DNA of 42,478 nt. Origin: a virus (taxonomy: Duplodnaviria > Heunggongvirae > Uroviricota > Caudoviricetes). The translations under genes were made by a program, and so were the position numbers. The notes under the pieces were generated by a model, which worked only from the letters and a program-made list of their open reading frames with translations, was not told the origin of the DNA and made no database searches. Below are positions 22,516-39,693 of this stretch, piece by piece (within the stretch, counting starts at the first letter, position 1; the number at the start of each line of letters is the position of its first letter). The DNA lies in IMG/VR virus record IMGVR_UViG_2698536308_000013; one strand, given 5' to 3'.

Positions 22516-22802
22516 AAATGACCTTTCTTTCTCCAGATTTCTTGTGTGCGAAAAACCCCTTCAGCATGCATCAGGCGCAATTCTTCTTTGGTGTAATCGC
22601 TGGTTTTTACCCGCCCGTCGATTAGATCGTGGCATGAGCTACAGGCTATCGCCGCCTGCATATCATGTGGTTTTGTCGCTGTTCCGCACGTCCCCGCCAG
22701 CCTGTAATGCGCCAGCACAGAGGTTTCGGGATTGTGATTGCAGTAGCCAGGGATTCTGATCTGGCACATCTGGCCTTTAGCCGCTTTACGTAAATTCACC
22801 AT
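22512..22802 (-). CDS. Nin-region protein (DUF1364-like, Cys/His-rich)
   Basis: 96 aa with CxxxxxC...CxxC...CSSCH pattern; translationally coupled to flanking genes. Confidence 0.45.
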   Translation of the reverse strand: MVNLRKAAKGQMCQIRIPGYCNHNPETSVLAHYRLAGTCGTATKPHDMQAAIACSSCHDLIDGRVKTSDYTKEELRLMHAEGVFRTQEIWRKKGHL

Positions 22803-23401
22803 TACGCAAACTCCAGTAGTTGTGCGGCCACATTTTCAACTTCCTCCTGAGAGGAGAATTTACGGAACAGAATCCAGTTCCACAGCACATTCAGTACAGA
22901 TTTATAAACCTGCTGAAACTCGACTTCGTCCATATTCGCAAAAGCGATGGATTTTGCCCGACGCCCACGGCTACCGTCCGGATAAATATGCTCGGTGTAA
23001 AATCCGGCCTGAATGGTTACCCACTCGCGGAAAGCCTCAAACGACTTTAGCAACGCCGTATCCCGGGTTCTACGAGTCGCAACGGTGTTAAGGTATTGCT
23101 CTGCGGCATCACTCAGGGCTGGCGTGTGTTCCCGACCAACTGATTCGCACAGGTAATCAACGAAACCAGACAGCAGTTCTCGTTCGCGAGGCGTGATCGC
23201 CCCACCGACCGGAGTCCAGTAATCGAATCCCAGTTGCAGGAGTTTGAAAAAACGCTTGTGGAATGCGTAGTTACGCACACGCTTAAAGTCTGCGTGTATC
23301 CACTCACCTATTTTGATTTGATGCAGAAAATCGCAACTCTCCGGCGTCGCCGGGAGAAGTAAACCAGAAGAGGTTTGTTTGACCAGTTGTATATGCGCCA
23401 T
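22802..23401 (-). CDS. Nin-region protein (DUF1367-like)
   Basis: 199 aa ORF upstream of and coupled to the DUF1364-like gene; family recalled from prophage annotations. Confidence 0.45.
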   Translation of the reverse strand: MAHIQLVKQTSSGLLLPATPESCDFLHQIKIGEWIHADFKRVRNYAFHKRFFKLLQLGFDYWTPVGGAITPRERELLSGFVDYLCESVGREHTPALSDAAEQYLNTVATRRTRDTALLKSFEAFREWVTIQAGFYTEHIYPDGSRGRRAKSIAFANMDEVEFQQVYKSVLNVLWNWILFRKFSSQEEVENVAAQLLEFA

Positions 23402-23681
23402 TTCTCAATCTCTCGATGGCGCAGCGCAGCAGATGCCAGTTGTTCAGGCTGACGAATAAAGTATAAATAAACTGGCTATGGTGTAAAGCCCCACATAGCA
23501 TGAACAAACACTACATATCAAATAGCTGGTACAAGGATAGAAATACGACACTTATTATTAAAAACGATTAGATAAATTACATTTTAATGTTATGCAAAAG
23601 TTCTTTTTTATCATAACATTTCAATAAAAGCATTACAGATGCAATCATCCCGTCATCATCAATTATTTAAGGTGGTTAAAC

Positions 23682-23768
23682 ATGGAAAATAACAAGTTCG
23701 CACATCTCGCTCCTTTTTTATCCGTAATCCTTTTCGCTTGTTGTTTTATATGGGCATTATTTTTATAA
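23682..23768 (+). CDS. Small hydrophobic peptide, 28 aa (MENNKFAHLAPFLSVILFACCFIWALFL)
   Basis: Strong SD AAGGTGG 6 nt upstream of ATG; single predicted TM helix; isolated in an AT-rich ORF-poor region. Below the ORF-track size cutoff. Confidence 0.35.
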   Translation: MENNKFAHLAPFLSVILFACCFIWALFL

Positions 23769-24176
23769 AGTAGCCACATGATAAGTTGCTGGAATCATAT
23801 TTCCCACTCAAGTCATTAACATTTGATAAGATATATCTAAAAGGACGCCTTTACATTATTTATGCGTATATAATTTATTTATATACACAGTAAAGGTATC
23901 CTGGGAAAATATTTATCGTTAAAAAATACATCATAAATAATTAAGCTGAAATTTCAGAACACAACTAATACACACAATAAGGTTCAGTAACAGTAATCTA
24001 TGTGGACTACATCGAGATTTTTTGATTAAACTTTAATAACTTATTCCTAACACACAGAATGCATAAACTAAAAGTAAAACAAATAGTTATACGAAAAACA
24101 ACCATATTTATTCTATCTTCTCCTCTAATCAACATATCAATTATGTGTTTCATAACAGCTTGACATAACCCTCCAA

Positions 24177-24199
24177 AAGATGCATTTTTAATGCATGTT
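24177..24199 (+). promoter_or_regulatory. NsrR-type operator-like palindrome upstream of the yeaR-like gene
   Basis: AAGATGCATTT-t-TAATGCATGTT; left half matches the recalled NsrR half-site AAGATGCATTT; TTGACA -35-like hexamer at 24160-24165. Confidence 0.45.
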
Positions 24200-24214
24200 T
24201 TGGAGGAGGTGGTT

Positions 24215-24553
24215 ATGACACACAAGAGAATTCCTAAAGATTGGGTAATCAAACGCTCAACTCCGTTCTTCACAAAAGAGAACGTACCTTCAGCGTTATT
24301 AACACATCATAATACAGCAGCAGGTGTTTTTGGGCAGTTGTGCGTAATGGAAGGCACTGTAACATATTATGGTTTTACTGATGAGAATGCTACTGAACCG
24401 GAGATAAAAGTAGTCATTAATGCTGGCGCTTTTGCAACAAGCCCACCACAATACTGGCACCGTGTTGAACTAAGCGATGATGCTCAGTTTAATATTAACT
24501 TTTGGGTCGCTCCAGACTTTTCGGGCGAAAAAGTCTATAGCACCAAAAAATAG
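24215..24553 (+). CDS. YeaR-like protein (DUF1971)
   Basis: About 112 aa; RSTPFFTKENVPSALLTHHNTAAGVFGQLCVMEGTVTYYGF resembles recalled E. coli YeaR; RBS GGAGG 7 nt upstream. Confidence 0.6.
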   Translation: MTHKRIPKDWVIKRSTPFFTKENVPSALLTHHNTAAGVFGQLCVMEGTVTYYGFTDENATEPEIKVVINAGAFATSPPQYWHRVELSDDAQFNINFWVAPDFSGEKVYSTKK

Positions 24554-24582
24554 ATGATCATATTAAAAATGCTTTAACAGTC

Positions 24583-24619
24583 AGACCCGGCAGGGCTATC
24601 CCCGACGGGTCTCATTTTT
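24583..24619 (+). terminator. Rho-independent terminator after the yeaR-like gene
   Basis: AGACCCG...CGGGTCT stem followed by CATTTTT, 30 nt after the stop. Confidence 0.6.
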
Positions 24620-25173
24620 GTAAATATATTGGTTCTACATTGACAGGAGACTTCAACCATAAGAAGTAATCTGAATACTTGAGCAATAAATTTACTTAAG
24701 ATTAATGAGCGCACCTTGCCGGACAAAGATAAACCAAGGTAACACCTTTTTTCTAGCCAGTATGTAATCAATCAGAAAGCCGCTCCATAAGAACAACAGC
24801 AAGACAATAAATTGCCATTACAGCCGCAATAGCCAGCGCACATTTGAGAACCAGCACGACAACCCCCTGTATTAGACGCACACCAGTCCTGATAAATATG
24901 AGGCTGTCTCGTCAGTGATTCAATACAACTATTGGGTATAGTTTCTGTGATTTTATTCTGTAGAAATGGAACACAACAACCAGTCACCACCAGCACTTCC
25001 TTAAATGCTCTAAGTCAGAAACAAGCCAACATTTTAGTCCGCTTTGAGCGATCTGCAGACATTGCTAGCAGCCTTCTGTGTGAATTCTCAGGGAGCAGGT
25101 CGGCATAGCATCACGTTGAGGCTCTTACCCTACTTGTTCACACCAACCCTAACTCCACAGACTGATTCATAAA

Positions 25174-26175
25174 TTAGTAATCTGCGTGTTTCGCACTTTT
25201 CAGAAATGCTTTCATATTTTCATTAGGTCGCTCAATTTCGAAGTTACTTCCATATAACTCTTGTAATTTTGGCCATAACTTACTTAATAACCCTCTCCTG
25301 CGATAAAATGGATGTATCCAAACGGTAGATAGGTACGGAGAATTTGCATTTGAATTGTTTATTGTGACCAGCCCAACTAAACATTGTCGATAACCACTAT
25401 TATCCATTGATTGTATTTCTTCGACGAATGGATACGCGATTACATCAGTCCAACCATGATCGGTTGTATCCCATTGCATTCCGTCATGACATTCCTTCGA
25501 CTGATAGCGGCGTAAAGCTACACACGCGAGCTTTTGCCAATCTGGAGAATTAATTGTGATCTCTTCATCGTATGACGCGCCTATTGGAGCGGGTATTGGT
25601 CTGATTAATCCAGCATGGCATTCATCATAGAACTTCATGTTTCCCTCAGAAACGTTGTGTACGTTGGGTTGCTCCATGTGTGCGCCATTCAAAAATAGCT
25701 CTGATAGTAGTGTATCTACACTGTAATCTTTATTGATTATTGTCGGCTTAGAGTTTTTCTTATTAAGGCCGCGAGTAACGATTTTTTGATCAATGTTAAC
25801 AACATGGAATAATCCGTCGGGGAGGCTAGCGAACCACGATGGGGCATCGGACCAGAATAGCATGCCTTTTGTACTTCTTAAGAGTTTAATTAAGTTAATA
25901 CAAGCTTCTTCACTAGTCTTGCCGTTGATGCGAAGTATGTTAGGACTAAAGTAATATTCATCCATATCAGGGAATGCAGCTTCGCAAAACTCCTGTACAT
26001 AATTTAGCACCTGGATTCTACAGAGATCATCATAGCTGGTAATAACTAAGGGGGTATCTTCATTACTATTATGATTATCAATAATGCAATCTATAGCGAG
26101 ACTTACTGCTTTGCGTATCACTTCAGTTGAATCTAACGACTCTAAAAATTTTGTCTTTCGTGTGCGAATATCCAT
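25174..26175 (-). CDS. Hypothetical protein, 333 aa, with possible C-terminal GNAT-like acetyltransferase fold; second gene of a low-GC operon
   Basis: Clean ORF 15 nt downstream of gene A. C-terminus CLVGLVTINN...STVWIHPFYRRRGLLSKLW resembles GNAT beta4-alpha3 with an R-x-x-G motif. N-terminal 230 aa unrecognised. Confidence 0.5.
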   Translation of the reverse strand: MDIRTRKTKFLESLDSTEVIRKAVSLAIDCIIDNHNSNEDTPLVITSYDDLCRIQVLNYVQEFCEAAFPDMDEYYFSPNILRINGKTSEEACINLIKLLRSTKGMLFWSDAPSWFASLPDGLFHVVNIDQKIVTRGLNKKNSKPTIINKDYSVDTLLSELFLNGAHMEQPNVHNVSEGNMKFYDECHAGLIRPIPAPIGASYDEEITINSPDWQKLACVALRRYQSKECHDGMQWDTTDHGWTDVIAYPFVEEIQSMDNSGYRQCLVGLVTINNSNANSPYLSTVWIHPFYRRRGLLSKLWPKLQELYGSNFEIERPNENMKAFLKSAKHADY

Positions 26176-26190
26176 GTATGACCTGCGCTA

Positions 26191-27213
26191 TTAAAATTCA
26201 TGAATGAACGGTTTGTCATCTGGTTGCAAAATGGTGGTTTTATTCGTTGCTACATTTAAACTGTTGTAGAGCATAATTGCCAGGTTCGATGCATTTTCAA
26301 TCAGCGTTTCAAGATCCTGGTCTGTAATCACTACGAGGTTCCCTTCTTTATCCTTTCCACCACGATGCACTAAGTGATTTCGATTGAGGGTTGCCAATTC
26401 AATAGCTTCTATCGGACAGTCTTTTTGTACTTTTATATCGAATGTAGCTTCATAGCGGTCGATTACCTTTTTAGTGCTATGCCAGCTTGCACTGATCAAG
26501 TGTTCCTTGATTGACCTGATTAGCTCTCCCCTAATTTTCTCGATGGGTTCACCCTTGAAAGGCAACGCAGCAATATCTTTGCTTACTTTAAATTCAGTCT
26601 TACCTTTTTCTATACAATTGGCTATGTAGACATCATCTTTCTCTATAGAATTAATGAATAGCTCAACATAAAGCGTTTCCAAAGCTGTAATAACATTCGT
26701 GTAGAGCAAACTAAGCAAGTGGTTTTTTTGCTGTTGTTCAGTTTTATCTTTTGCAAGTTTTTTTATTTTATCGATATTATCAATGAATTTTAAATACGGA
26801 TTACCGGAAGACGTTACAGCGTCGTAGATATCATCATCGTACCAATCATCTATATTATTTGAGTTTCCAGACCAGTCAAAACATTGTGTTTGTAATTCAT
26901 CTACTAATTCCTCAATATACTCAGATTTAACATATTGACCGAAGATGGATTGTAGTTCTTCGCTCGCATCATACGGCCCGCCATATATGTAAGCATAGCC
27001 ACCTTCTCTACTTTCATACGGACAAGCATTTGCCGGATCTTCAAAGTTTTCAAAGAACCAGTTTTTCATTACTTCGAGTTGATCTTTTTTGCTTATGTAT
27101 TTTAAAGATTTTAGTGGAACTTTCTTTCCATTAACCTCGAAAACAATTTTCACGATGTAACGCTCCCTTGTATCAATTGCGCAACTATTATACCACAGCG
27201 AAATACAGGGCAT
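26191..27213 (-). CDS. Hypothetical protein, about 340 aa, with C-terminal HEPN-like R-x4-H motif; first gene of a low-GC operon
   Basis: Perfect SD AAGGAGG 6 nt upstream of the ATG at 27213 (tracked ORF extends to 27282); C-terminal LNRNHLVHRGG fits the HEPN Rx4-6H signature. No other recognisable domain. Confidence 0.5.
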   Translation of the reverse strand: MPCISLWYNSCAIDTRERYIVKIVFEVNGKKVPLKSLKYISKKDQLEVMKNWFFENFEDPANACPYESREGGYAYIYGGPYDASEELQSIFGQYVKSEYIEELVDELQTQCFDWSGNSNNIDDWYDDDIYDAVTSSGNPYLKFIDNIDKIKKLAKDKTEQQQKNHLLSLLYTNVITALETLYVELFINSIEKDDVYIANCIEKGKTEFKVSKDIAALPFKGEPIEKIRGELIRSIKEHLISASWHSTKKVIDRYEATFDIKVQKDCPIEAIELATLNRNHLVHRGGKDKEGNLVVITDQDLETLIENASNLAIMLYNSLNVATNKTTILQPDDKPFIHEF

Positions 27214-27351
27214 AACCTGCCTCCTTAAACTAACATACCATGAGCCAGCAATGTCCGCTATTGGCACAAAGCGGACAACCACGCTAGCTCTCCCCTGTGC
27301 CAGAAAAATGTCAATTTACATATGAACTAATGCTCTTTGATCTAGTAACGT

Positions 27352-27783
27352 CTATAAATACCGAAGATTTCCTTGATAAAATGCCAGTACACGTTTCATA
27401 ACTTCACTCTTCCGGCACTCGCGACAGATTATGTTCTGACGCCTGTCATAGCGGCGTATTTCTCCGTCTGGTAATGACCAGATAAGGTCAGGATCAACCA
27501 CAACCGTTTTTTTCACCTTTGCCCTGGATAGTTTTTTGCGGGCGTTTTTCCAATCCTTACGAGCCTGTTCAGACGGGAATAACCCATAGCCAGAGTTGTA
27601 TACATCGCCACTGGCAACCAACTCTCTGGCAAGAATGCTCATCAGATATCTTGTCGCACCTGTCTTGGCCTCCAGTTGCCTTAACGTCTCGCGCCCACTC
27701 TGGCGTACCAACTCAACAACCTGCTCCTTAATTTTTTCACGCTCTTCCTGTGTAAAAACTTTTGCCATAAGCGCCTCCGGCAA
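27352..27783 (-). CDS. Hypothetical replication-module protein (position of Rac ydaW), N-terminal HTH-like
   Basis: 143 aa; a diverged partial paralogue is at 29732..29979; start overlaps the upstream gene stop. Confidence 0.5.
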   Translation of the reverse strand: MPEALMAKVFTQEEREKIKEQVVELVRQSGRETLRQLEAKTGATRYLMSILARELVASGDVYNSGYGLFPSEQARKDWKNARKKLSRAKVKKTVVVDPDLIWSLPDGEIRRYDRRQNIICRECRKSEVMKRVLAFYQGNLRYL

Positions 27784-28545
27784 TCACTTTTCCGACACAA
27801 TACGACTGGAGGAATCGACAATCTGTCGGACAATATCCCGGTGCTTGTTCAGCTCCCGCAGCGCGGCGCAGACTCGCTCCCACTTCTGGACATGATTTTT
27901 CGCCCGACGCAGTTCGCGGTTTGCCATATGCAGCGATGGTAAAACTAGGTCATCCGCTTGCGTTTCAGTAAACGATGGCAGCGACTGCACAATGTCCGCC
28001 ACAGTTTCTGTTTTAATATCTTCCTGTGTTGCCGCTTCCTGTACTGGTAACGCAACACCGGCTGGCTGAGGAAAGGCTTTACCATCAGTTTCCGCTACCG
28101 ATGCAGCTTTCGGCTCTGCTGGTAAATTATCGCCCGGCATGCAGTAACGAAATTTACTGTTCTGGTTTACGCGAATCAGGCGTCCTTTGCTGATTGCCAT
28201 TGCCAGCGTTGAAGCAACTTTGCGGGATGTTGTACCGAACAGCGTAGCCAGTTCATCCGCCGTTTGTGGTCCGCGTTGTTCAATCGTCGCGGTTAAATCG
28301 CACTCTGAGATTTTCACTACAGTTGCCGTGGTGGTTTCTTCCGGCAGTTCTGCCTGCATTGGCTGTTCCTGCTGAACGTTGTTATCAGCCACACGCCAGG
28401 TGTACGCGCTTTTATCAACGAAACCAGCTTTTTTCAGTTCCCATAGTTCGTTCAGCACTTCTTCACGACTGATATCAAGTCGCGCAGCAAGTTCTATGGA
28501 TGTGGCTTTTCCCATTGCTTTCAGTGCGTCAAAAACAGTCTCCAT
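27784..28545 (-). CDS. Hypothetical protein (DUF1627-like, N-terminal winged helix)
   Basis: Start chosen at [13 protein letters not shown] with SD GGGAGG; Glu/Thr/Ala-rich low-complexity middle; family name recalled, not verified. Confidence 0.45.
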
Positions 28546-28567
28546 AAAAATTTCCTCCCGGTAAAAA

Positions 28568-29314
28568 TTACTTCTCAATTCCTGGCTGGACGACATTCGG
28601 ACGCCAGCTCTCCCAGTTAAAATTCACCCATCGCCCGCCGTTCATGGTCATGCGATCCATAATCCGCTCGCCGAGCAATGTTTTCATGGCCTCATAGTTC
28701 AGGTTTGTCAGCATCCCCACGCTGCGCATCGACGCTGTCCGGCGATCAACAATCTGGTGCAGCACCACCTGCTCGTTTTTCGTCTCGCGCTGAATGCCAA
28801 TTTCATCAAGAACCAGCAGATCCACTTCGCATAGTTCCCGCAAAAATTTTTCGCCTGACTGCCCATCGTCATAGCTGGCGTGCAGGGCACTCATAACATC
28901 AGCCACGGTAACCACAATCACTGTCTGACCGTCTTTCAGCAGGCGATTCCCGATAGCTGCCGCTAAGTGATTCTTCCCGGTACCAGGTTTTCCGCTGAAC
29001 GCAAAATTTGTACACCCGGTCATCAGTTCATCAGCGATGGATTTCGCCTGACTCAACGCGTATCGCTGCGCTTCGTTCTGCACCTGGTAATTCGAAAACG
29101 AGCATTTGCGGTGCAATGGCTGGATGCCAGAGCGATTCAGAATTTTTTCCACCCGCAACTGACGATTCTGACGGTTGATCTCCTCACAACGTTTCTGGCC
29201 TTCGGAAAGTTGCCACTCGCGCCACTCCGCTACCGTCTTGAATGGCGCGGTTACATGTGACGGGGCCAGTCTGCGGATACGTTCAAGAACGTCGCCTGTC
29301 GCAATATTTTTCAT
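28568..29314 (-). CDS. ydaV: DnaC-like helicase loader (Rac YdaV-like), copy 1
   Basis: 248 aa with Walker [14 protein letters not shown] and Walker B LLVLDEIG; IstB/DnaC-type architecture. Confidence 0.85.
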
Positions 29315-29320
29315 GGTCAG

Positions 29321-29720
29321 TTACCCCCTGAAGCCTGGCGGGATCGCACTATCCGGTAACGAGACGGTGTTAACCTGTCGGAGTAACGTCTCAGGTCGAA
29401 CACCTTTCGGCGCGAACAAGCCCTGGTATTCATTGGCGATGCTGTGTCGAATCACCTGCTCAGGTGAAAAACCCTGCTGGCGGAATTTTTCCAGCTCCCG
29501 TATCGCCCCGTTAGCGCCCTGCTCCGTTCGAATCGGTTTTCGCAATGCCTGGCGAAATTCAACCCACTCACGCCAAAGCGAGACAGAAATCCAGTTCGGC
29601 AAAGCAATATCCAGAGGGTCAAACTTTTTGACACCTCGATTCCCCCGGGGGGGATTTAGGGGGGGATCTGTTTTTAGATCTTTATCTGTATCTTTATTAG
29701 TTGCCTTTGTGTTGACATCA
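29321..29720 (-). CDS. C-terminal fragment of an O-like replication initiator (ydaU-type), cut at its 5' side by an N-gap
   Basis: Nearly identical (2 mismatches in first 80 nt) to the 3' end of the ydaU-like gene at 32696..33090; the gap begins exactly where identity would end. Confidence 0.6.
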
Positions 29721-29731
29721 NNNNNNNNNNN
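29721..29731. other. Assembly gap, 11 N
   Basis: Run of N in the sequence. Confidence 1.
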
Positions 29732-29979
29732 ACTCTCGAGAGTTTTTTGCGGGCGCTTTGCCAGTCCTTGCGAGCCTGTTCAGACGGGAATAAGCCGTAG
29801 CCAGAATTATATACATCACCACTTGCGACCAGTTCTATGCATAAGCGACCGACAGACGCACGACTGATACCTGTTTCATCTGACAACTGCCGAATCGTGA
29901 CCCGACCGTCCTGATGCACGAGTTCCACAATTCGCGTCTTCAGTTCTTCCCGCTGTTCGGGAGTAAAAGGTTTCGCCAT
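29732..29979 (-). CDS. Partial paralogue of the 27352..27783 gene (N-terminal HTH part), 3' end lost in the gap
   Basis: MAKPFTPEQREELKTRIVELVHQDGRVTIRQLSDETGISRASV...; about 85 percent nucleotide similarity to copy 1. Confidence 0.5.
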
Positions 29980-29993
29980 AAATCCTCCTGAAA

Positions 29994-30740
29994 CTACTTA
30001 ACAACCCTCGAATGGCTAACATTCGGACGCCAGCTCTCCCAGTTAAAATTCACCCAGCGCCCGCCGTTCATGACCATGCGATCCATCACCCGCTCGCCGA
30101 GCAATGTTTTCATCACCTCATAGTTCAGGTTTGTCAGCATCCCCACGCTGCGCATCGACGCTGTCCGGCGATCAACAATCTGGTGCAGCACCACCTGCTC
30201 GTTTTTCGTCTCGCGCTGAATGCCAATTTCATCAAGAACCAGCAGATCCACTTCGCACAGCTCCCGCAAAAATTTTTCGCCTGACTGCCCGTCGTCATAG
30301 CTGGCGTGCAGGGCGCTCATAACATCAGCCACGGTAACCACAATCACTGTCTGACCGTCTTTCAGCAGGCGATTCCCGATAGCTGCCGCTAAGTGATTCT
30401 TCCCGGTACCAGGTTTTCCGCTGAACGCAAAATTTGTACACCCGGTCATCAGTTCATCGGCGATGGATTTCGCCTGGCTTAACGCGTATCGCTGGCCGTC
30501 GTTCTGCACCTGGTAATTCGCAAACGAGCATTTACGGTGCAACGGCTGGATGCCTGAGCGATTCAGAATTTTTTCCACCCGCAACTGGCGATTCAGGCGG
30601 TTGATCTCCTCGCTACGTTTCTGGCCTTCAGCAAGTTGCCACTCGCGCCACTCCGCTACCGTTCTGAATGGGGCGGTTACATGTGGCGGGGTCAGTCGGC
30701 GGATGCGTTCCAGAACGCCGCCTGTCGCAATATTTTTCAT
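29994..30740 (-). CDS. ydaV: DnaC-like helicase loader (YdaV-like), copy 2
   Basis: 248 aa, about 95 percent identical to copy 1 with the same Walker motifs. Confidence 0.85.
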   Translation of the reverse strand: MKNIATGGVLERIRRLTPPHVTAPFRTVAEWREWQLAEGQKRSEEINRLNRQLRVEKILNRSGIQPLHRKCSFANYQVQNDGQRYALSQAKSIADELMTGCTNFAFSGKPGTGKNHLAAAIGNRLLKDGQTVIVVTVADVMSALHASYDDGQSGEKFLRELCEVDLLVLDEIGIQRETKNEQVVLHQIVDRRTASMRSVGMLTNLNYEVMKTLLGERVMDRMVMNGGRWVNFNWESWRPNVSHSRVVK

Positions 30741-30746
30741 GGTCCG

Positions 30747-31423
30747 TTACCCCCTGAAGCCTGGCGGGATCGCACTGTCCGGCAACGAGACGGTGTTAAC
30801 CTGTCGGAGCAACGTCTCAGGCCGAACACCTTTCGGCGCGAACAGGCCCTGGTATTCATTGGCGATGCTGTGTCGAATCACCTGCTCAGGTGAAAAACCC
30901 TGCTGGCGGAATTTTTCCAGCTCCCGTATCGCCCCGTTAGCGCCCTGCTCCGTTCGAATCGGTTTTCGCAATGCCTGTCTGAACCGGACCCACTCATGCC
31001 AGAGTGTTTCCGGCAACCAATCGGGCAGCTCAATAGCCTCCGGCTCGAATTTTTTAGACGCTCGTTTTTGGCGAGGGGGAGATCAGTATTTAGATCTTCC
31101 TCTTCCTCTTCCTCTGGTAACGCTTTTTGATCCGTTTGTGTAACGCTGGCAGCGTTACCTTTTCGTTTCAGTTCGCGTATTTTTGTTACTCGCTCGTTTG
31201 TAACCGCCCGTTTTTTTTAGAGCTTTTTCCGTTATGACGTTCAAAGTTAGGTAGAGAAAGCCCTCCGTCATTTTCGACCAGCCATCCAACCTGAATTAAC
31301 GCATCAGCAAAACCAGACATAAAAGTGATGCGATCTATTGCACTTTTTGTAACGCCGCGAGCGTTACAATCTGCATTACCGTCTATCATTTGTTGATCCG
31401 CCCATGCCCAGAAGCGAATAACC
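30747..31423 (-). pseudogene. O-like replication initiator with a different N-terminal domain, 5' end truncated by the IS, probable frame disruption
   Basis: C-terminal 89 aa match the other O-like copies; upstream part (31186..31423) is in another frame; a T8 homopolymer and a CTCTTC x3 repeat lie in between. Confidence 0.5.
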
Positions 31424-31487
31424 TGAGGTAGCCTGAGTTTAACGGACACTCCTTCCTGAAATAGAATGGCATCAGAAGGAGCTAATA

Positions 31488-31790
31488 ATGAGCAGAAAAA
31501 CCCAACGTTACTCTAAAGAGTTCAAAGCCGAAGCTGTCAGAACGGTTCCTGAAAATCAACTTTCGATCAGTGAAGGCGCTTCCCGATTATCTCTTCCTGA
31601 AGGCACTTTAGGACAATGGGTTACCGCCGCCAGAAAAGGGCTCGGTACTCCTGGTTCCCGCACGGTGGCTGAACTGGAATCTGAAATTCTGCAACTGCGT
31701 AAGGCGTTAAATGAAGCTCGCCTTGAGCGAGATATATTAAAAAAAGCAACAGCGTATTTTGCACAGGAGTCGCTGAAAAATACGCGTTAA
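31488..31790 (+). CDS. IS3-family transposase OrfA (HTH)
   Basis: 100 aa ending ...LERDILKKATAYFAQESLKNTR, typical IS3 OrfA leucine-zipper C-terminus. Confidence 0.85.
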   Translation: MSRKTQRYSKEFKAEAVRTVPENQLSISEGASRLSLPEGTLGQWVTAARKGLGTPGSRTVAELESEILQLRKALNEARLERDILKKATAYFAQESLKNTR

Positions 31791-31825
31791 TCGAACAATG
31801 GCGACAACAATTTCCCATTGAAGCG

Positions 31826-32644
31826 ATGTGTCAGGTATTTGGTGTATCCAGGAGCGGTTATTACAACTGGGTACAGCATGAACCCTCAGACAGAAAACAA
31901 AGTGATGAGCGGCTAAAACTGGAGATTAAGGTGGCACATATCCGCACTCGCGAAACATATGGAACCCGGCGGCTCCAGACGGAGCTGGCAGAGAATGGCA
32001 TCATCGTTGGTCGTGACCGACTGGCACGTCTTCGTAAGGAGCTAAGGCTACGCTGTAAGCAGAAACGCAAGTTCAGAGCGACTACGAACTCGAACCACAA
32101 TCTGCCAGTTGCGCCAAATCTGCTGAACCAGACGTTCGCTCCTACAGCACCAAATCAGGTCTGGGTGGCGGACCTGACGTATGTTGCCACACAGGAGGGA
32201 TGGTTGTACCTCGCTGGCATCAAAGATGTTTATACGTGCGAAATTGTCGGCTACGCCATGGGAGAGCGCATGACAAAAGAGCTGACAGGTAAAGCCCTGT
32301 TTATGGCGCTCAGGAGCCAGCGCCCACCTGCCGGGCTAATCCACCACTCTGATCGAGGTTCACAGTACTGCGCATACGATTACCGGGTCATACAGGAGCA
32401 GTCTGGTCTGAAAACATCAATGTCGCGTAAAGGTAACTGTTACGACAACGCTCCGATGGAAAGCTTCTGGGGAACGCTGAAAAATGAGAGCCTGAGCCAC
32501 TATCGTTTTAATAACCGGGATGAAGCCATCTCAGTAATACGGGAATACATTGAGATTTTCTACAATCGTCAGCGTCGTCACTCTCGTCTGGGGAATATCT
32601 CCCCGGCAGCCTTCAGGGAAAAATATCATCAGATGGCTGCTTAA
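31826..32644 (+). CDS. IS3-family transposase OrfB (DDE catalytic domain); frame opens upstream and is normally fused to OrfA by -1 frameshift
   Basis: Contains …VWVADLTYV… and …HSDRGSQY…, consistent with an IS3-family DDE integrase core. Confidence 0.85.
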   Translation: MCQVFGVSRSGYYNWVQHEPSDRKQSDERLKLEIKVAHIRTRETYGTRRLQTELAENGIIVGRDRLARLRKELRLRCKQKRKFRATTNSNHNLPVAPNLLNQTFAPTAPNQVWVADLTYVATQEGWLYLAGIKDVYTCEIVGYAMGERMTKELTGKALFMALRSQRPPAGLIHHSDRGSQYCAYDYRVIQEQSGLKTSMSRKGNCYDNAPMESFWGTLKNESLSHYRFNNRDEAISVIREYIEIFYNRQRRHSRLGNISPAAFREKYHQMAA

Positions 32645-32688
32645 AAAAAGAACAAATGGTAGTGTCCGCTATTGCCAGTACACCTCAN

Positions 32689-32695
32689 NNNNNNC
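32689..32695. other. Assembly gap, 7 N
   Basis: Run of N immediately after the IS right end. Confidence 1.
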
Positions 32696-33547
32696 CCTGA
32701 AGCCTGGCGGGATCGCACTGTCCGGCAACGAGACGGTGTTAACCTGTCGGAGTAACGTCTCAGGTCGAACACCTTTCGGCGCGAACAAGCCCTGGTATTC
32801 ATTGGCGATGCTGTGTCGAATCACCTGCTCAGGTGAAAAACCCTGCTGGCGGAATTTTTCCAGCTCCCGTATCGCCCCGTTAGCGCCCTGCTCCGTTCGA
32901 ATCGGTTTTCGCAATGCCTGGCGAAATTCAACCCACTCACGCCAAAGCGAGACAGAAATCCAGTTCGGCAAAGCAATATCCAGAGGGTCAAACTTTTTGA
33001 CACCTCGATTCCCCCGGGGGGGATTTAGGGGGGGATCTGTTTTTAGATCTTTATCTGTATCTTTATTAGTTGCCTTTGTGTTGACATCATGTTCAAACAC
33101 CACTTCAACATCTGTTTGAACACCTGTTAAATTTCTCTCTTGTTTTGTTTGAACATCTGCTTCCTTTCTGCTTCTTCTGGCCTGAACAGATGCTTTTCCT
33201 GCGGCTGATTTTTTGGTTAATTTTTCCCTGACTGATGCCAGATCTTCCTCAATCCGAAGATGCACCCATTCCTCGCCGTTATCGCAAAAAAACTCCTGCA
33301 AGGATGGTTCAACATCAGCCCATCGCTCGTTAGTCAGACGGGCAATTTTTGCCAGCCTGTTTTTAGGTATTGGCTTTCCTGTTTGCCAGTAATTGAACAT
33401 CAGCAACAAATACGCACCATGCTCCTCTGCTGACAAATGCATGGTGTCAGCCAGGTAATCAGCTATGTACAGTTGCATGTATGGTAATGCGGCCATAATT
33501 GCCCCGTATGATGCTGCCCGGTGGCTTAGAATAAGCACAAACAGCAT
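32696..33547 (-). CDS. ydaU: O-like replication initiator (YdaU-like, DUF1376-type N-terminus), 3' end abuts the N-gap
   Basis: N-terminus MQLYIADYLADTMHLSAEEHGAYLLLMFNYWQTGKPIP fits the DUF1376 pattern; C-terminal block shared with the other two copies; likely start near 33496. Confidence 0.65.
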
Positions 33548-33559
33548 GGAAACTTTTGC

Positions 33560-33982
33560 TTAATGAACAATGACAGAATCGTCGGAAGACCCGCCGCCGC
33601 TGAAATGCGCTTTCCGGTAAACGGCTTGGACTGCATCATCATGCGCATCAATTGCCGTACTTAACGCTTCCTGCGCCGCCAGTAATGCACGGCGTTCCAG
33701 GGTATCGAAGATGCAGAGTCGGTGACGCAGCTCGCGCGGAAGGATTGCCAGAATTGCTGGGATCAGCTTCTGAATTTTTTCTCTTTGCGTTTTCGTTTCA
33801 CCTTTCAACCAACGGTGATAGATATTCTGCTGATTATTCCAGTCCTTGCCTGGTACCAGGGGCAATTCGCCGCCCCCCTGGCGCAGATATTCTTCAGTAA
33901 TGGCATTGGCTACCCATGCCTGCCCTTTTTCGGCTGCCAGGGCTAACAACACTGACTCGATGTGCTCATGCTTGATTTTCAT
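33560..33982 (-). CDS. ydaT: YdaT-like protein, 140 aa
   Basis: Same size and position as Rac YdaT (downstream of ydaS, upstream of ydaU). Confidence 0.65.
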   Translation of the reverse strand: MKIKHEHIESVLLALAAEKGQAWVANAITEEYLRQGGGELPLVPGKDWNNQQNIYHRWLKGETKTQREKIQKLIPAILAILPRELRHRLCIFDTLERRALLAAQEALSTAIDAHDDAVQAVYRKAHFSGGGSSDDSVIVH

Positions 33983-34233
33983 GAATCAACTCCCATCAGC
34001 TTTTTCGTAGTAGTTTTATTTCTGCCAATAGTTAAAATTACATCAGCAGAAAATAATCCGTTTGATGCATGAGCGATTTTTTCAGCGTAATTTGTTTCGC
34101 CGGTATATTCTGTGCGAGGCAATTTTCCGTTATCCATCCATTTGTAGATTGCTCTTTGGCTGACACCACAAACGTCGGCCACAACAGAAACGCGAACAGT
34201 TTTGATTACATCTTCAAGTGTTTTCTGGTTCAT
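33979..34233 (-). CDS. ydaS: Cro-like HTH protein YdaS-like
   Basis: Start at MNQKTLEDV with SD GAGGG; HTH segment VCGVSQRAIYKWMDNGKLP; divergent from the repressor gene. Confidence 0.6.
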   Translation of the reverse strand: MNQKTLEDVIKTVRVSVVADVCGVSQRAIYKWMDNGKLPRTEYTGETNYAEKIAHASNGLFSADVILTIGRNKTTTKKLMGVDS

Positions 34234-34294
34234 ATCACCCTCACAATGTGAACTTTGAGTACATGCTATAACAGAACTGACAGTACATTCAAGA

Positions 34295-34732
34295 GTGAAT
34301 ATCATTGAACTTATGGTTCATGAAGATAAAGCGCGTAAAGAGTTCGCCAGTAGGCTTGCGCTAGCCTGTGAAAACGCTGGTTATGAACAACATGGAAGGC
34401 AGGCAGAAATTGCCCGTCGAATGAAATTAACACCAAAAGCGGTTAGCAAATGGTTTAATGGCGAAACAATTCCTCGCCGAGAGAAATTAAGGGAATTAGC
34501 AACACTCATTGGAACAACACCAACCTATCTTTTGGGAGAGGATACAGAAGAAAGTGGACAGGTACGTTTCTATCAGGAGTTAAATCCAAGACAAAAAATC
34601 ATCATTGACCTTCTGGACGAGCTCCCTGACAGTGAGACAGATGAACTTTTAAAAACTCTTGAGGAGAAAAAACAGAAGTACAATGCAATTTACGAAGAGC
34701 TAGCACGAAAGAAAAAACAAAAAGCCTCTTAA
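34295..34732 (+). CDS. racR: Prophage repressor (XRE-family HTH; position of Rac RacR)
   Basis: HTH QAEIARRMKLTPKAVSKWFNGE; divergent from the ydaS-like gene across a short intergenic region; start GTG 34295 or ATG 34313. Confidence 0.6.
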   Translation: MNIIELMVHEDKARKEFASRLALACENAGYEQHGRQAEIARRMKLTPKAVSKWFNGETIPRREKLRELATLIGTTPTYLLGEDTEESGQVRFYQELNPRQKIIIDLLDELPDSETDELLKTLEEKKQKYNAIYEELARKKKQKAS

Positions 34733-35022
34733 ACCAGCATAAATCCGGTAGCGTCCCCCTCCGGGTTTGTGCTTCACTTTATCCCATCTCATTTTTTTAC
34801 ACACAAAATGTACTTATAGTACTTTACATCAATGAACACAAAGTACATTATATACCTACCAACCCACCCCGCCCCACAGAACGCAGGGCAATACTTCGAG
34901 TTACCAGGCAGTGGTCAGGGGTTAAGTAGCCAGCCCGAGGCGTATGAACATGACGGCAGGGTTCAGATTTTGCAGTGCAGCAGGTTTCAGTTCCGCCACC
35001 CGGCGTTAAGGGGAGAGATAAG

Positions 35023-35157
35023 ATGGTGCATTACGAAGTAGTTCAGTATTTGATGGATTGTTGCGGTATCACTTACAACCAGGCTGTGCAGGCTTTACGC
35101 AGCAACGACTGGGATCTCTGGCAGGCAGAAGTCGCTATACACAGCAACAAGATGTGA
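35023..35157 (+). CDS. Small Rac early protein (ydaF/ydaG-like), 44 aa
   Basis: MVHYEVVQYLMDCCGITYNQAVQALRSNDWDLWQAEVAIHSNKM with SD GGGGAGAG; I cannot assign ydaF versus ydaG from memory. Confidence 0.55.
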   Translation: MVHYEVVQYLMDCCGITYNQAVQALRSNDWDLWQAEVAIHSNKM

Positions 35158-35167
35158 GATTCGCAAA

Positions 35168-35323
35168 ATGCAAAAAATCGACCTCGGCAACAACGAATCC
35201 CTGGTGTGCGGCGTGTTCCCCAACCAGGATGGAACGTTCACTGCCATGACGTATACCAAAAGCAAAACATTTAAAACCGAAACTGGTGCGCGCCGATGGT
35301 TGGAGAAGCACACAGTAAGCTAA
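35168..35323 (+). CDS. Small Rac early protein (ydaF/ydaG-like), 51 aa
   Basis: MQKIDLGNNESLVCGVFPNQDGTFTAMTYTKSKTFKTETGARRWLEKHTVS; below the ORF-track cutoff, found by manual translation. Confidence 0.55.
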   Translation: MQKIDLGNNESLVCGVFPNQDGTFTAMTYTKSKTFKTETGARRWLEKHTVS

Positions 35324-35808
35324 CGATTAAAACGTCTACTCCTGCTGTTCCAGAATAACTTCATAAAATGGGAGTATTTTTCGGTGACGAGATAATAAGA
35401 ACAGTTTGCGCTATCACTCTGATGTTGAATGATGCCCTTCCGTTCTAATTTTTTCATAACCGGGTTACGGCAAGGAGAAGTGATAATAAGATTTCCTGTT
35501 TTAAGGAAATCTTTAAATACAGCGATTTCTTTCTCAGATAAACGAAGCAATACTCGTTGCTCTGGTAGTAATGAATAATGCTTTTGAATATGTGCTCGCA
35601 ATCTTGAGAAGGAAATGGCGACCACGAAAGAAAAGGCAAAAACGATAATCTGAAAGAGCCAAGGTATTTCAGTATAAGCATTGAATGCGACAGTAAACTC
35701 TTTCGGTATCAGCCAGAGAGTGAGACCAAAAATGATAATCGTATACATAAGTATTTCGAGTGGCTCGTTAGCAAAAAGTTTCAACAATGGAGTAAATACA
35801 TCCAACAT
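35320..35808 (-). CDS. sieB: Superinfection exclusion protein SieB
   Basis: 162 aa from MLDVFTPLLKLFANEPLEILMYTIIIFGLTLWLIP, membrane protein, opposite strand to the early operon as in Rac. Confidence 0.8.
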   Translation of the reverse strand: MLDVFTPLLKLFANEPLEILMYTIIIFGLTLWLIPKEFTVAFNAYTEIPWLFQIIVFAFSFVVAISFSRLRAHIQKHYSLLPEQRVLLRLSEKEIAVFKDFLKTGNLIITSPCRNPVMKKLERKGIIQHQSDSANCSYYLVTEKYSHFMKLFWNSRSRRFNR

Positions 35809-36249
35809 ATCAATAACTCTCAACTGTAAGGGTATTGAAATGTTAACACAAGCTCTCGCTGTAGGGGTATAGCCGAGACCACCGAAGCCCGGAGGTGGTG
35901 AAATAAAACCGGGCACAACACGAAGGCGCATTTCCGATATCCATAAAGAGTCGGTCTTGTCTGTTAAATTTAAATGGTGGGAGTGCGCCTCCGGTTGTAA
36001 ATAACGACATTGCTGTGTGTAGTCCTGGCGGCATCAGTTTTTTTCTTGAAGTTCGGCTGATGTCCGCCCTTTTTAAAGTGAATTTTGTGATGCGGTGAAT
36101 GCGGCTAAGCGCACGTGGCACAGTTAAAAGTCATGTTAGTCCTTATTGGTTTGGGTGGGAAAGCCGACTGTAATTGTTAACTGGTTGCAGTCACCTGGAG
36201 GCACCAGGCACCGCATCAACAAAGTTCATTTGTAAAAATGGAGATAATT

Positions 36250-36471
36250 ATGATTGCACATCACTTCGGAACTGATGAAATACCACGTCAGTGTGTGACT
36301 CCTGGCGATTATGTTCTTCATGAAGGCCGGACATATATTGCCTCGGCAAACAATATTAAAAAGCGAAAACTATATATTCGTAACCTGACCACAAAAACAT
36401 GCATTACTGACCGCATGATTAAAGTCTTCCTCGGTCGTGATGGTTTACCTGTAAAGGCGGAGTCATGGTGA
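36250..36471 (+). CDS. kilR: Cell-division inhibitor KilR
   Basis: 73 aa [49 protein letters not shown]..., recalled as Rac KilR. Confidence 0.85.
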
Positions 36472-36641
36472 TGACTAAGAAAATAAAATGTGCTTACCAC
36501 CTTTGCAAAAAAGACGTTGAAGAAAGCAAAGCTATTGAAAGAATGCTTCACTTCATGCACGGGATTTTATCAAAAGACGAACCGAGAAAATATTGCAGTG
36601 AAGCTTGTGCCGAAAAAGACCAGATGGCACATGAACTTTAA
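36471..36641 (+). CDS. ydaE: Small zinc-binding protein YdaE
   Basis: 56 aa [14 protein letters not shown]...CSEACAEKDQMAHEL; start overlaps the kilR stop (TGATG). Confidence 0.7.
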   Translation: MTKKIKCAYHLCKKDVEESKAIERMLHFMHGILSKDEPRKYCSEACAEKDQMAHEL

Positions 36642-36715
36642 TTAATTGACTATTCGAAACTGAATTTATGCCAGAAATGGCAGGTATTCGCTCAACCTTA
36701 ATTAAGGAGAAAAAC

Positions 36716-36991
36716 ATGATTACCAATTATGAAGCCACTGTTGTAACTACCGATGACATTGTTCACGAGGTGAATCTGGAAGGAAAGCGCATTGGCTACG
36801 TAATTAAAACAGAAAATAAAGAAACCCCATTCACTGTGGTTGATATCGATGGTCCATCAGGCAACGTAAAAACACTTGATGAAGGTGTCAAAAAAATGTG
36901 CCTGGTGCATATCGGAAAGAATCTGCCCGCAGAAAAAAAAGCCGAATTTCTGGCAACTCTAATTGCAATGAAATTAAAAGGTGAAATCTGA
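36716..36991 (+). CDS. racC: RacC
   Basis: 91 aa from MITNYEATVVTTDDIVHEVNLEGKRIGYV with SD AAGGAG; directly upstream of recE. Confidence 0.8.
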   Translation: MITNYEATVVTTDDIVHEVNLEGKRIGYVIKTENKETPFTVVDIDGPSGNVKTLDEGVKKMCLVHIGKNLPAEKKAEFLATLIAMKLKGEI

Positions 36992-37092
36992 AAGAAATAG
37001 CCTGCGTATGGCGCAGGCTATGAACAGTGTGTATCCGGCAAGATCATTCACTGAACAAAACGAATTTTAATCTGAGTTGAGGTTAAAAAACA

Positions 37093-39693
37093 ATGAGCAC
37101 AAAACCACTCTTCCTGTTACGGAAAGCGAAAAAATCATCCGGTGAACCTGACGTCGTCCTGTGGGCAAGCAACGATTTTGAATCGACCTGTGCCACTCTG
37201 GACTACCTGATCGTTAAGTCAGGTAAAAAACTGAGCAGCTATTTTAAAGCTGTTGCCACGAATTTTCCTGTCGTTAATGACCTGCCCGCTGAAGGTGAGA
37301 TCGATTTTACCTGGAGTGAACGCTATCAACTCAGCAAAGACTCCATGACATGGGAACTAAAACCGGGAGCAGCACCAGACAACGCTCACTATCAAGGCAA
37401 TACCAACGTCAACGGCGAAGACATGACTGAGATTGAGGAGAATATGCTACTCCCAATTTCTGGCCAGGAACTGCCCATTCGTTGGCTTGCTCAACACGGC
37501 AGCGAAAAACCGGTAACGCACGTTTCACGCGACGGACTCCAGGCATTACACATTGCTCGGGCTGAAGAACTACCGGCTGTTACTGCCCTGGCTGTTTCCC
37601 ACAAAACCAGCCTGCTCGACCCGCTGGAAATTCGCGAACTCCACAAACTGGTTCGTGACACTGACAAAGTTTTCCCTAATCCTGGTAATTCAAACCTGGG
37701 ACTGATAACTGCTTTTTTCGAAGCATACCTGAACGCTGACTACACCGATCGAGGACTGCTGACAAAAGAGTGGATGAAGGGTAATCGTGTTTCACACATC
37801 ACTCGCACGGCTTCCGGTGCTAATGCTGGCGGCGGAAACCTCACCGATCGCGGCGAAGGTTTCGTACACGATCTGACGTCACTGGCGCGGGACGTAGCCA
37901 CTGGCGTACTGGCCCGTTCAATGGATCTGGACATCTATAACCTTCATCCGGCACACGCTAAACGCATTGAGGAAATTATCGCTGAAAATAAACCGCCCTT
38001 TTCTGTTTTCCGCGACAAATTCATCACCATGCCTGGCGGGCTGGATTATTCCCGCGCCATCGTGGTTGCGTCCGTAAAAGAAGCACCAATTGGGATCGAG
38101 GTCATCCCCGCGCACGTCACTGAATATCTGAACAAAGTACTGACTGAAACCGATCATGCCAACCCTGATCCGGAAATCGTGGATATTGCCTGCGGTCGCT
38201 CCTCTGCCCCGATGCCGCAGCGAGTAACAGAAGAAGGAAAACAGGATGATGAAGAAAAACCGCAACCATCTGGAACAACGGCAGTTGAACAGGGAGAGGC
38301 TGAAACAATGGAACCGGACGCAACTGAACATCATCAGGACACGCAGCCGCTGGATGCTCAGTCACAGGTAAATTCTGTTGATGCGAAATATCAGGAACTG
38401 CGGGCAGAACTCCATGAAGCCCGGAAAAACATTCCATCAAAAAATCCTGTCGATGCCGATAAATTGCTTGCTGCATCACGTGGTGAATTTGTTGACGGAA
38501 TTAGCGACCCGAACGATCCGAAATGGGTAAAGGGGATCCAGACTCGCGATTGTGTGTACCAGAACCAGCCAGAAACGGAAAAAACCAGCCCGGATATGAA
38601 TCAACCTGAGCCAGTAGTGCAACAGGAACCGGAAATAGCCTGCAATGCCTGCGGCCAGACTGGCGGGGATAACTGCCCTGACTGTGGTGCGGTGATGGGC
38701 GACGCAACATACCAGGAAACATTCGATGAAGAGAGTCAGGTTGAAGCTAAGGAAAATGATCCGGAGGAAATGGAAGGCGCTGAACATCCGCACAATGAGA
38801 ATGCTGGCAGCGATCCGCATCGCGATTGCAGTGATGAAACTGGCGAAGTCGCAGATCCCGTAATCGTAGAAGACATAGAGCCAGGTATTTATTACGGAAT
38901 TTCGAATGAGAATTACCACGCGGGTCCCGGTGTCAGTAAGTCTCAGCTCGATGACATTGCTGATACTCCGGCACTGTATTTGTGGCGTAAAAATGCCCCC
39001 GTGGACACCACAAAGACAAAAACGCTCGATTTAGGAACCGCTTTCCACTGCCGGGTACTTGAGCCGGAAGAATTCAGTAACCGCTTTATCGTAGCACCTG
39101 AATTTAACCGCCGGACAAACTCCGGAAAAGAAGAAGAGAAAGCGTTTCTGAGGGAATGCGCAAGCACAGGAAAAACGGTTATCACTGCCGAAGAAGGCCG
39201 GAAAATTGAACTCATGTATCAGAGCGTTATGGCTTTGCCGCTGGGGCAATGGCTTGTTGAAAGCGCCGGACACGCTGAATCATCAATTTACTGGGAAGAT
39301 CCTGAAACAGCAATTTTGTGTCGGTGCCGTCCGGACAAAATTATCCCTGAATTTCACTGGATCATGGACGTGAAAACTACGGCGGATATTCAACGATTCA
39401 AAACCGCTTATTACGACTACCGCTATCACGTTCAGGATGCATTCTACAGTGACGGTTATGAAGCACAGTTTGGAGTGCAGCCAACTTTCGTTTTTCTGGT
39501 TGCCAGCACAACTATTGAATGCGGACGTTATCCGGTTGAAATTTTCATGATGGGCGAAGAAGCAAAACTGGCAGGTCAGCTGGAATATCACCGCAATCTG
39601 CGAACCCTGGCTGACTGCCTCAATACCGATGAATGGCCAGCTATTAAGACGTTATCACTGCCCCGCTGGGCTAAGGAATATGCAAATGACTAA
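37093..39693 (+). CDS. recE: Exodeoxyribonuclease VIII RecE, full length 866 aa
   Basis: Size matches K-12 RecE; acidic linker; C-terminal nuclease domain; translationally coupled to recT (ATGACTAA overlap). Confidence 0.9.

Follow-up and report, generated by a model that had tools for sequence, protein, structure and literature searches.

False duplications at scaffold gaps have been described in draft assemblies (Kelley & Salzberg 2010, PMC2864568; Ko et al. 2022, PMC9516828), and a gap between two copies of a sequence is a recognised hallmark of such errors (PMC9516828). In these cases, near-identical copies are set apart by gaps, better assemblies hold one copy, and spurious extra and partial genes result. 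The locus analyzed here, a 42,478-nt stretch of viral DNA (Caudoviricetes; IMG/VR record IMGVR_UViG_2698536308_000013), hereafter called the window, would have all of these properties. Whereas the published cases (PMC2864568, PMC9516828) concern haplotype differences in diploid vertebrates, the window involves paralogous prophage modules and a multi-copy insertion sequence (IS) in a haploid bacterium and, unlike those cases, would hold a foreign contig between the two false copies.

The Rac module ydaT-ydaU-ydaV-ydaW of Escherichia coli has the same genes as the window, in the same order and of the same families, and identity to closed E. coli genomes across the region is 99.9%. Following removal of the presumed artefact, no difference from the Rac module was left. 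The Rac prophage of K-12 is a shorter remnant; the prophage in the window, a relative of Rac, is full-length and includes genes for head, tail, and lysis.

An IS600-disrupted lambdoid prophage remnant that adjoins modABC in Shigella sonnei-type chromosomes matches the block between the 11-N and 7-N runs. HE616528.1, an S. sonnei chromosome, and CP146292.2, CP022457.1, and CP014099.2, which appear to be S. sonnei as well, carry window positions 29732-32687 at 99.8-99.9% identity, and IS600 interrupts the initiator gene at an identical point. In these chromosomes the block runs on into its own prophage on both sides, whereas in the window N runs cut it at both ends.

The replication genes can also be likened to lambda O/P, where the initiator gene contains the origin and is accompanied by a helicase loader. 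A predicted initiator gene is followed by a predicted loader gene, the initiator gene contains short repeats, and the two initiator types in the window differ in their N-terminal part and have in common a C-terminal part that accompanies the loader. By Pfam, neither YdaU (DUF1376) nor YdaV (IstB/DnaC-like) is homologous to its lambda counterpart, O or P.

Results

N runs and repeats in the window

Three N runs interrupt the window, at 19006-19044 (39 N), 29721-29731 (11 N), and 32688-32694 (7 N). The 39-N run, which is absent from an earlier sequence-only reading, corresponds to 4 reference bases in the closed genome of E. coli JP538, showing that the length of an N run is a poor measure of distance. 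The 11-N and 7-N runs, to which no strand applies, were annotated as scaffold gaps. They join contig X (ending at 29720) to block Y (29732-32687) and block Y to contig Z (starting at 32695), respectively; for both, bridging sequence was absent from the searched collections.

The sequence-only reading had described three copies of an O-like 3′ region, and self-BLAST located all of them, as ydaU 3′ regions, at 29326-29720 (copy a), 30752-30977 (copy b), and 32695-33089 (copy c). Copies a and c were identical at 393 of 395 positions; copy b (30752-30977) was 98.7% identical to 32695-32920 of copy c. Two DnaC-like (ydaV) genes, put at about 95% identity, were likewise confirmed. The a module (28593-29551) and the b module (30019-30977) matched at 95.5% over 959 nt spanning ydaV and the ydaU 3′ end, ydaV and the initiator 3′ end share stretches of perfect identity as long as 142 bp, and the YdaV(a) and YdaV(b) proteins were 92% identical. 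Two neighbouring helix-turn-helix (HTH) genes had been placed at about 85% identity. Both are indeed DUF977 genes, matching at 86.6% (27524-27620 against 29735-29831), but over 97 nt only and at positions that are not equivalent. The b gene is cut, and 56 of 82 residues are identical between their proteins.

Copy a ends at 29720, the base preceding the 11-N run. The gap thus abuts the repeat exactly, as had been claimed, but copy a does not diverge from copy c at this point; the identity persists as far as the gap, where copy a just stops. The 7-N run begins one base past the end of IS600 (31424-32687), and copy c starts at 32695, the base right after the run, so that the repeat resumes past the IS where the earlier reading had placed it.

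The Rac-type module

The a module lies on the minus strand. DUF977, copy a (27352-27783; HTH; Pfam DUF977, E = 3e-31), is collinear with closed JP538. The adjoining ydaW-like DUF1627 gene (27784-28596, minus strand; Pfam DUF1627, E = 2e-100), annotated in JP538 as a 253-aa protein, lies between ydaV and DUF977 in module a and is absent from module b. The gene ydaV(a) (28568-29314, minus strand; Pfam IstB_IS21, E = 2e-20) encodes a predicted DnaC/IstB-like helicase-loader ATPase. The 3′ part of ydaU, copy a (29321-29720, minus strand), forms the end of contig X. Contig Z starts with ydaU copy c (32695-33547, minus strand), which is complete but for the gene's last 5 nt and of which 32695-33089 duplicates copy a. 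It continues with a single copy of ydaT (33560-33982, minus strand; Pfam YdaT_toxin), which is collinear with JP538 and in a Rac-type prophage context. Together, the Pfam families YdaT_toxin, DUF1376 (YdaU), IstB-like ATPase, DUF1627, and DUF977 represent a Rac-type replication module, in the order found in annotated closed genomes, and this region of the window stands beside recET, xisR, and intR. Two cargo ORFs at 25-27 kb were considered as a defence system; PADLOC gave no match to them and Pfam matches were sub-threshold only.

Collinearity with a single Rac-type prophage in the closed genome of E. coli JP538 (L010) extends through the whole window. Window 19045-29720 matches L010 23433-12758 (99.85%), window 32695-42478 matches L010 13152-3369 (99.92%), and window 10-19005 matches at 98.9%, below the rest of the window. 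Because both flanks are collinear with JP538, copies a and c share one 395-bp site in that genome (L010 12758-13152). Both copies also carry a private base (29646/33015) that is absent from JP538.

The exact YdaV(a) protein was found in the order YdaT-YdaU-YdaV-DUF1627-DUF977, as a single module, in 10 of 10 large or closed contexts. A single module of 4132 bp, equal in length to window 27000-29720 joined straight to 33090-34500, is present in many closed E. coli genomes. Removing 29721-33089 (3369 bp) from the window gave an intact 285-aa ydaU product, one residue off the YdaU of JP538.

IS600 and the second module

Block Y measures 2956 bp. It starts with the first 82 codons of DUF977(b) (29732-29979, minus strand), cut by the N run; relatives read on uninterrupted, as in IMG/VR contig L005 and in L003 (5826-6248; Pfam DUF977). 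This stretch has a 93.6% paralogue in IMG/VR contig L004, which provides a reason for the contig break at the start of block Y. Next lies ydaV(b) (29994-30740, minus strand; Pfam IstB_IS21), predicted to be the loader gene of another prophage. Closed chromosomes of 4.8-5.0 Mb encode the exact YdaV(b) protein next to modABC, with an initiator gene split by IS600 on one side and DUF977-QueH-hok on the other. In the window, ydaV(b) is followed by the 3′ part of the initiator gene O(b) (30747-31423, minus strand), from which IS600 has severed the 5′ 103 nt. The uninterrupted gene in FDAARGOS_944 encodes 262 aa (L003 7016-7804), the window match ending at L003 7701. As a protein, the O(b) initiator differs from YdaU, save for its C-terminal part.

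A complete IS600 (IS3 family; 31424-32687, plus strand, 1264 bp) ends the block. It is 99.8-100% identical to annotated IS600 copies, encodes orfA (HTH_Tnp_1) and orfB (rve), and has the ends TG...CA. The element has simply inserted into O(b) in L005, where the 3-bp target repeat ACC lies on both sides. Its right flank is ACC and the missing O(b) 5′ part in L005, and an N run in the window; in L004 this IS600 end is flanked by different sequence. The IS600/O(b) junction was not found in complete E. coli genomes; it is present in IMG/VR contigs and, located via the exact YdaV(b) protein, in closed chromosomes.

Block Y forms one unit, at 99.8-99.9% identity, in three closed chromosomes (L014, L017, L020) and in L005. 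The native order is cI-cro-ydaT(b)-O(b)5′-IS600-O(b)3′-ydaV(b)-DUF977(b)-QueH-hok, adjoining modABC. The block is bordered by the 5′ portion of O(b) and the remainder of DUF977(b) in each of the closed genomes examined, and in a closed genome with both module types the modules are ∼540 kb apart. Judged by these sequence comparisons, block Y is a fragment of another prophage, with its own cI-cro-ydaT genes, and not of the Rac-type prophage.

Searches for the arrangement and its junctions

Both junctions were sought by pattern scans allowing 0-30 intervening bases in IMG/VR, GTDB representative genomes, and JGI metagenomes. The X/Y junction (29720/29732) gave 0 matches in these three collections, as did the Y/Z junction (32687/32695). 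The arrangement of the window was absent from 5426 complete E. coli genomes and 50,697 phage records. Coverage of at least 80% of the region was reached in 1 of the 5426 E. coli genomes, CFSAN027346. This genome was rejected as an instance of the same arrangement: its ydaU is interrupted by a different IS3-family element flanked by a 3-bp repeat, and its IS600 lies in recE.

Swapped paralogue-specific bases

Copy c differs from copy a at two positions only, 32720 and 32726; both bases are b-type and both lie directly beside the 7-N run. Copy b is a-type at 30893, 30906, and 30921, where 5 of 5 genuine b copies (L005, L009, L014, L017, L020) agree with one another on other bases. Real gene conversion between prophages could in principle account for the swapped bases. 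Assembly switching is favored over it because the b-type bases sit at the very edge of the N run.

Discussion

The sequence-only reading leaned toward repeat-induced contig breaks joined by a scaffolder, leaving the choice between one module, two modules, and a chimera. Genome comparison and the internal sequence signatures support this leaning and sharpen it: the Rac-type prophage has one module, and the second is a piece of a different prophage. The module duplication is in all likelihood an assembly artefact, in which a contig of the second prophage would have been placed between overlapping ends of the Rac-type prophage.

The source genome, presumably laid out like its relatives, would contain one Rac-type prophage with a single module, consisting of racR-like and cro-like genes, ydaT, ydaU, ydaV, DUF1627, and DUF977. 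Elsewhere in this genome, or in a co-assembled strain, there would be a degraded lambdoid prophage with O(b) split by IS600, ydaV(b), and DUF977(b). Because ydaV and the initiator 3′ end are ∼95% identical between the a and b modules, short-read assembly would have broken there. A scaffolding or gap-filling step probably then put the 2956-bp contig Y between X (end 29720) and Z (start 32695). In truth, contigs X and Z would overlap by 395 bp, and the true sequence would be the window minus 29721-33089.

Of the contig ends at the two gaps, the 3 that could be judged all coincide with repeats, namely the IS600 terminus, the a/b homology region, and the DUF977 stretch with its 93.6% paralogue. 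The end of contig X at 29720 lies ∼170 nt past the a/b homology, in sequence without a known paralogue. A repeat was considered as the cause of this end and rejected; the sole candidate is a 10-bp motif cluster beginning at this position, and an ordinary k-mer assembly would not be broken by so short a motif. Since X ends outside the a/b homology, the 395-bp overlap would need a postulated gap-filling or overlap-tolerant step, a point that counts against the artefact reading. As expected of a false duplication, the intervening block has a different native site and the copies collapse to one in closed relatives.

Alternatively, the arrangement may be real, with a segment of the second prophage inside the Rac-type ydaU, a genuine 395-bp direct duplication around it, and N runs that mark spots hard to sequence. 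Campbell-type integration of an excised circle or an IS600-mediated rearrangement could lead to this outcome. IS600-rich genomes do rearrange, as the other flank at the same IS600 end in L004 illustrates, genuine IS insertions in ydaU occur in closed CFSAN027346, and some read pairs presumably supported the order that the scaffolder chose. Nevertheless, two illegitimate junctions would be required, both exactly at the two unsequenced points, and neither was encountered in IMG/VR, GTDB representatives, or JGI metagenomes. The true IS3-family insertion in ydaU of CFSAN027346 leaves a 3-bp repeat, not 395 bp, block Y keeps its normal partners in every closed genome examined, and the b-type bases where copy c meets the gap resemble assembly switching. 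We consider a real arrangement very unlikely, and with it the capture of an IS600-associated segment with a second loader gene in the Rac-type initiator gene with a 395-bp duplication. If true, such a capture would mean that the prophage carries two loader genes and that its replication region is a hybrid.

Copies a and c might also both be real but of separate origin, either two Rac-type prophages or two strains sequenced as a mixture; the scaffold would then link the left portion of one with the right portion of the other, block Y lying in between. E. coli and Shigella genomes often have several lambdoid prophages with near-identical segments, and the lower identity of window 10-19005 to JP538 (98.9%) than of the remainder would agree with a mixed origin. 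Both sides of the gaps are, however, collinear with one JP538 prophage at 99.85-99.92%, with the 395-bp overlap perfectly in register; the private base is common to both copies and the sole two differences between them are the b-type bases beside the 7-N run. Of the readings weighed here, this is the least probable. Placement of a foreign contig between overlapping ends of one Rac-type prophage is preferred.

The duplication is very probably not a real feature of the prophage; all of its genes are already known, and no new biology is involved. The main value of the analysis lies in data hygiene, and the small N runs in the record should not be used as reliable distances. Read literally, the window would credit a Rac-type prophage with a second helicase-loader gene, a truncated ydaU, and an IS600 insertion site that are all false, as well as with a truncated DUF977 gene, and would make the prophage 3.4 kb too long. 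Counts of replication-module duplications, IS600 targets, or prophage mosaicism that are drawn from draft assemblies may be at risk of the same error.

Repeats and gaps in the replication region

Sequence comparison indicates that the duplication of replication genes in this Rac-type prophage is very probably false, an assembly artefact rather than a real feature. Every gene of the region lies on the minus strand, the IS being the sole exception. DUF977(a) (27352-27783), DUF1627 (27784-28596) and ydaV(a), encoding an IstB/DnaC-like ATPase (28568-29314), precede the 3′ 400 nt of the initiator gene ydaU (copy a, 29321-29720), where contig X ends in 11 N (29721-29731). Block Y (29732-32687, 2956 bp) holds 82 codons from the start of another DUF977 gene, b (29732-29979), ydaV(b) (29994-30740), O(b), a different initiator gene represented by its 3′ part (30747-31423, including copy b), and IS600 (31424-32687, plus strand). 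Following 7 N (32688-32694), contig Z opens with ydaU complete but for the final 5 nt (copy c, 32695-33547), then ydaT (33560-33982) and cro-like and racR-like repressor genes.

By self-BLAST, copies a (29326-29720) and c (32695-33089) were identical at 393 of 395 positions, and the two ydaV-containing gene sets, modules a (28593-29551) and b (30019-30977), were 95.5% identical. Copies b and c matched at 98.7% over 226 nt and the DUF977 pair at 86.6% over 97 nt only; the YdaV(a) and YdaV(b) proteins shared 92% identity. The repeats abutted the N runs to the base, bearing out the sequence-only reading of duplicated replication genes with gaps exactly at repeat boundaries. Other parts of that reading were revised: copy a does not diverge from copy c at the 11-N gap and simply stops there, module b is not equivalent to module a as it is without DUF1627, and O(b) is unrelated to YdaU except in its C-terminal part. 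Separation of the copies by a gap is an accepted mark of false duplication (PMC9516828; see also PMC2864568).

Of the four contig ends flanking the 11-N and 7-N gaps, three fall in repeats. On its right, Y stops at the terminus of a multi-copy IS; on its left, it starts in a DUF977 stretch for which an S. sonnei-type contig has a 93.6% paralogue; and the Z end lies within the a/b homology. Contig X ends at 29720, about 170 nt past the a/b homology, where the sequence has no known paralogue.

Comparison with closed genomes

Next to ttcA and intR, the closed E. coli JP538 chromosome has a prophage (locus L010) with which the whole window was collinear: window 10-19005 corresponded to L010 42431-23438 (98.9%), 19045-29720 to 23433-12758 (99.85%) and 32695-42478 to 13152-3369 (99.92%). 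Because the last two alignments overlap, copies a and c represent the same 395 JP538 bases (L010 12758-13152), and the window has 3369 extra bases relative to one Rac-type prophage. Across many closed genomes of E. coli, one 4132-bp module spans the region and corresponds precisely to window 27000-29720 fused with 33090-34500. Around the exact YdaV(a) protein, all 10 large contexts returned had the single order YdaT-YdaU-YdaV-DUF1627-DUF977. Deleting 29721-33089 restored a complete YdaU of 285 aa that differs from the JP538 protein at one residue.

The third N run (39 N, 19006-19044) lies at the overlap of rrrD (lysozyme) and rzpD (Rz-like). Its flanks are 4 nt apart in JP538, so N lengths in the record are not real distances. 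Since the module-b type prophage has lysis genes paralogous to these at 90-93%, this run is probably another repeat-induced break. Identity to JP538 changes at this gap, from 98.9% in the structural and lysis half (10-19005) to 99.85-99.92% in the early-gene half (19045-42478), pointing either to a mosaic origin or to a further joining of contigs that are not neighbours.

Block Y was native elsewhere. In E. coli FDAARGOS_944 the module without the IS was 99.0% identical and belonged to another lambdoid prophage, whose genes run cI, cro, ydaT, 262-aa initiator, ydaV, DUF977, QueH, hokD. The exact YdaV(b) protein was found in closed 4.8-5.0 Mb chromosomes, including HE616528.1, from Shigella sonnei 53G. 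Several of these chromosomes (L014, L017, L020) carried the complete 2956-bp block at 99.8-99.9% in a prophage remnant adjoining modABC, flanked on one side by ydaT(b) and the 5′ part of O(b) missing from the window, and on the other by the remainder of DUF977(b). Six IMG/VR contigs, and none of 5426 complete E. coli genomes, had the window's junction between IS600 and O(b).

In two draft-derived IMG/VR contigs (L004 4928-7641, L009 2892-3651), this IS600 right end leads into a third DUF1627/DUF977 module type, about 90% identical to module a, with no N at the join in L004 and a single N in L009. This flank reflects either a genuine rearrangement mediated by IS600 in the strains concerned or additional mis-joins at that IS.

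Two junction patterns, ydaU position 395 to DUF977(b) and IS600 right end to ydaU 3′ end, were scanned allowing 0-30 intervening bases. Neither had a match in IMG/VR, GTDB representative genomes or JGI metagenomes; the pattern recovered the window itself, and therefore the search works. No phage record covered more than 61% of the region.

Origin of the duplication

Contigs X and Z would belong to one Rac-type prophage, with 395 bp of overlap. A short contig of a paralogous, IS600-disrupted module from another prophage, which may reside in the same genome or a co-assembled strain, would have been inserted between the two during scaffolding or gap filling. We infer this assembler behaviour, as well as the resemblance of the strain to its relatives. 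The five genuine b copies compared (L005, L009, L014, L017, L020) all agree with one another at 30893, 30906 and 30921, where copy b of the window has a-type bases. True a and true b have exact runs of 142, 80, 62, 56, 47 nt and shorter in common, and copy c, a-type from repeat position 59 on, switches type inside a 26-nt exact run. Such patchy swapped bases are what path switching or mixed consensus in short-read assembly would give.

A genuine nested insertion that duplicated 395 bp is disfavoured and very unlikely. IS600 in L005 is a simple insertion flanked on either side by the 3-bp target repeat ACC, and closed CFSAN027346 likewise has a genuine IS3-family insertion in ydaU, with a 3-bp repeat (GTA) and without a long duplication. 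In closed NZ_CP087564, which has both module types, the modules are about 540 kb apart. An origin of copies a and c in two distinct Rac-type prophages or strains is also disfavoured, and very unlikely. Their sole two differences (32720 and 32726), no more than 32 nt from the 7-N run, are b-type, and the copies have in common a base (29646/33015) absent in JP538, as expected if both are the same locus. The scaffolding artefact preferred in the sequence-only reading is supported by the single module in closed relatives, the native home of block Y, the swapped bases and the absence of the junctions from the collections scanned.

Cargo genes

Two adjacent minus-strand ORFs downstream of DUF977 (25174-26175 and 26191-27282) are hypothetical in the JP538 annotation, and other Rac-type prophages are without them at this position. 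One (333 aa) had a below-threshold match to a GNAT acetyltransferase and the other (363 aa) to a HEPN/RES N-terminal domain; neither had a PADLOC match. They may form an uncharacterised toxin or defence pair.

Replication modules

The real gene content is already known: the Rac-type module comprises YdaT, YdaU (DUF1376 initiator), YdaV (DnaC/IstB-like loader), DUF1627 and DUF977. In lambda O/P, the initiator binds repeats inside its own gene and recruits the host helicase via the loader. The likeness would lie in the initiator-loader pairing and in repeats within the initiator gene.

The 10-mer TGTTTGAACA occurs three times in the window (33090-33099, minus; 33113-33122 and 33146-33155, plus; 0.15 expected by chance), the cluster (33090-33155) beginning one base past the a/c repeat end. 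Lying inside ydaU, they are candidate origin iterons. O(b) has its own repeated palindrome, GTAACGC..GCGTTAC (about 31125-31165 and 31340-31368; 7414-7437 and 7621-7645 in L003, the FDAARGOS_944 locus), in the part differing from ydaU, possibly its own binding sites.

The two initiator types have only the C-terminal 75-90 codons in common (window 30747-31016 versus 32695-33547; L003 7016-7804), and these travel with the adjacent ydaV (95.5% at the nucleotide level). The N-terminal parts are unrelated, YdaU having DUF1376 and the 262-aa O(b) no Pfam match, and each type has its own short repeats in the gene. This arrangement is consistent with a lambda O/P-like model, under which the initiator would recognise repeats lying in its own coding sequence and rely on the loader to bring in the host helicase. 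The breakpoint, at a domain boundary, is typical of lambdoid mosaics.
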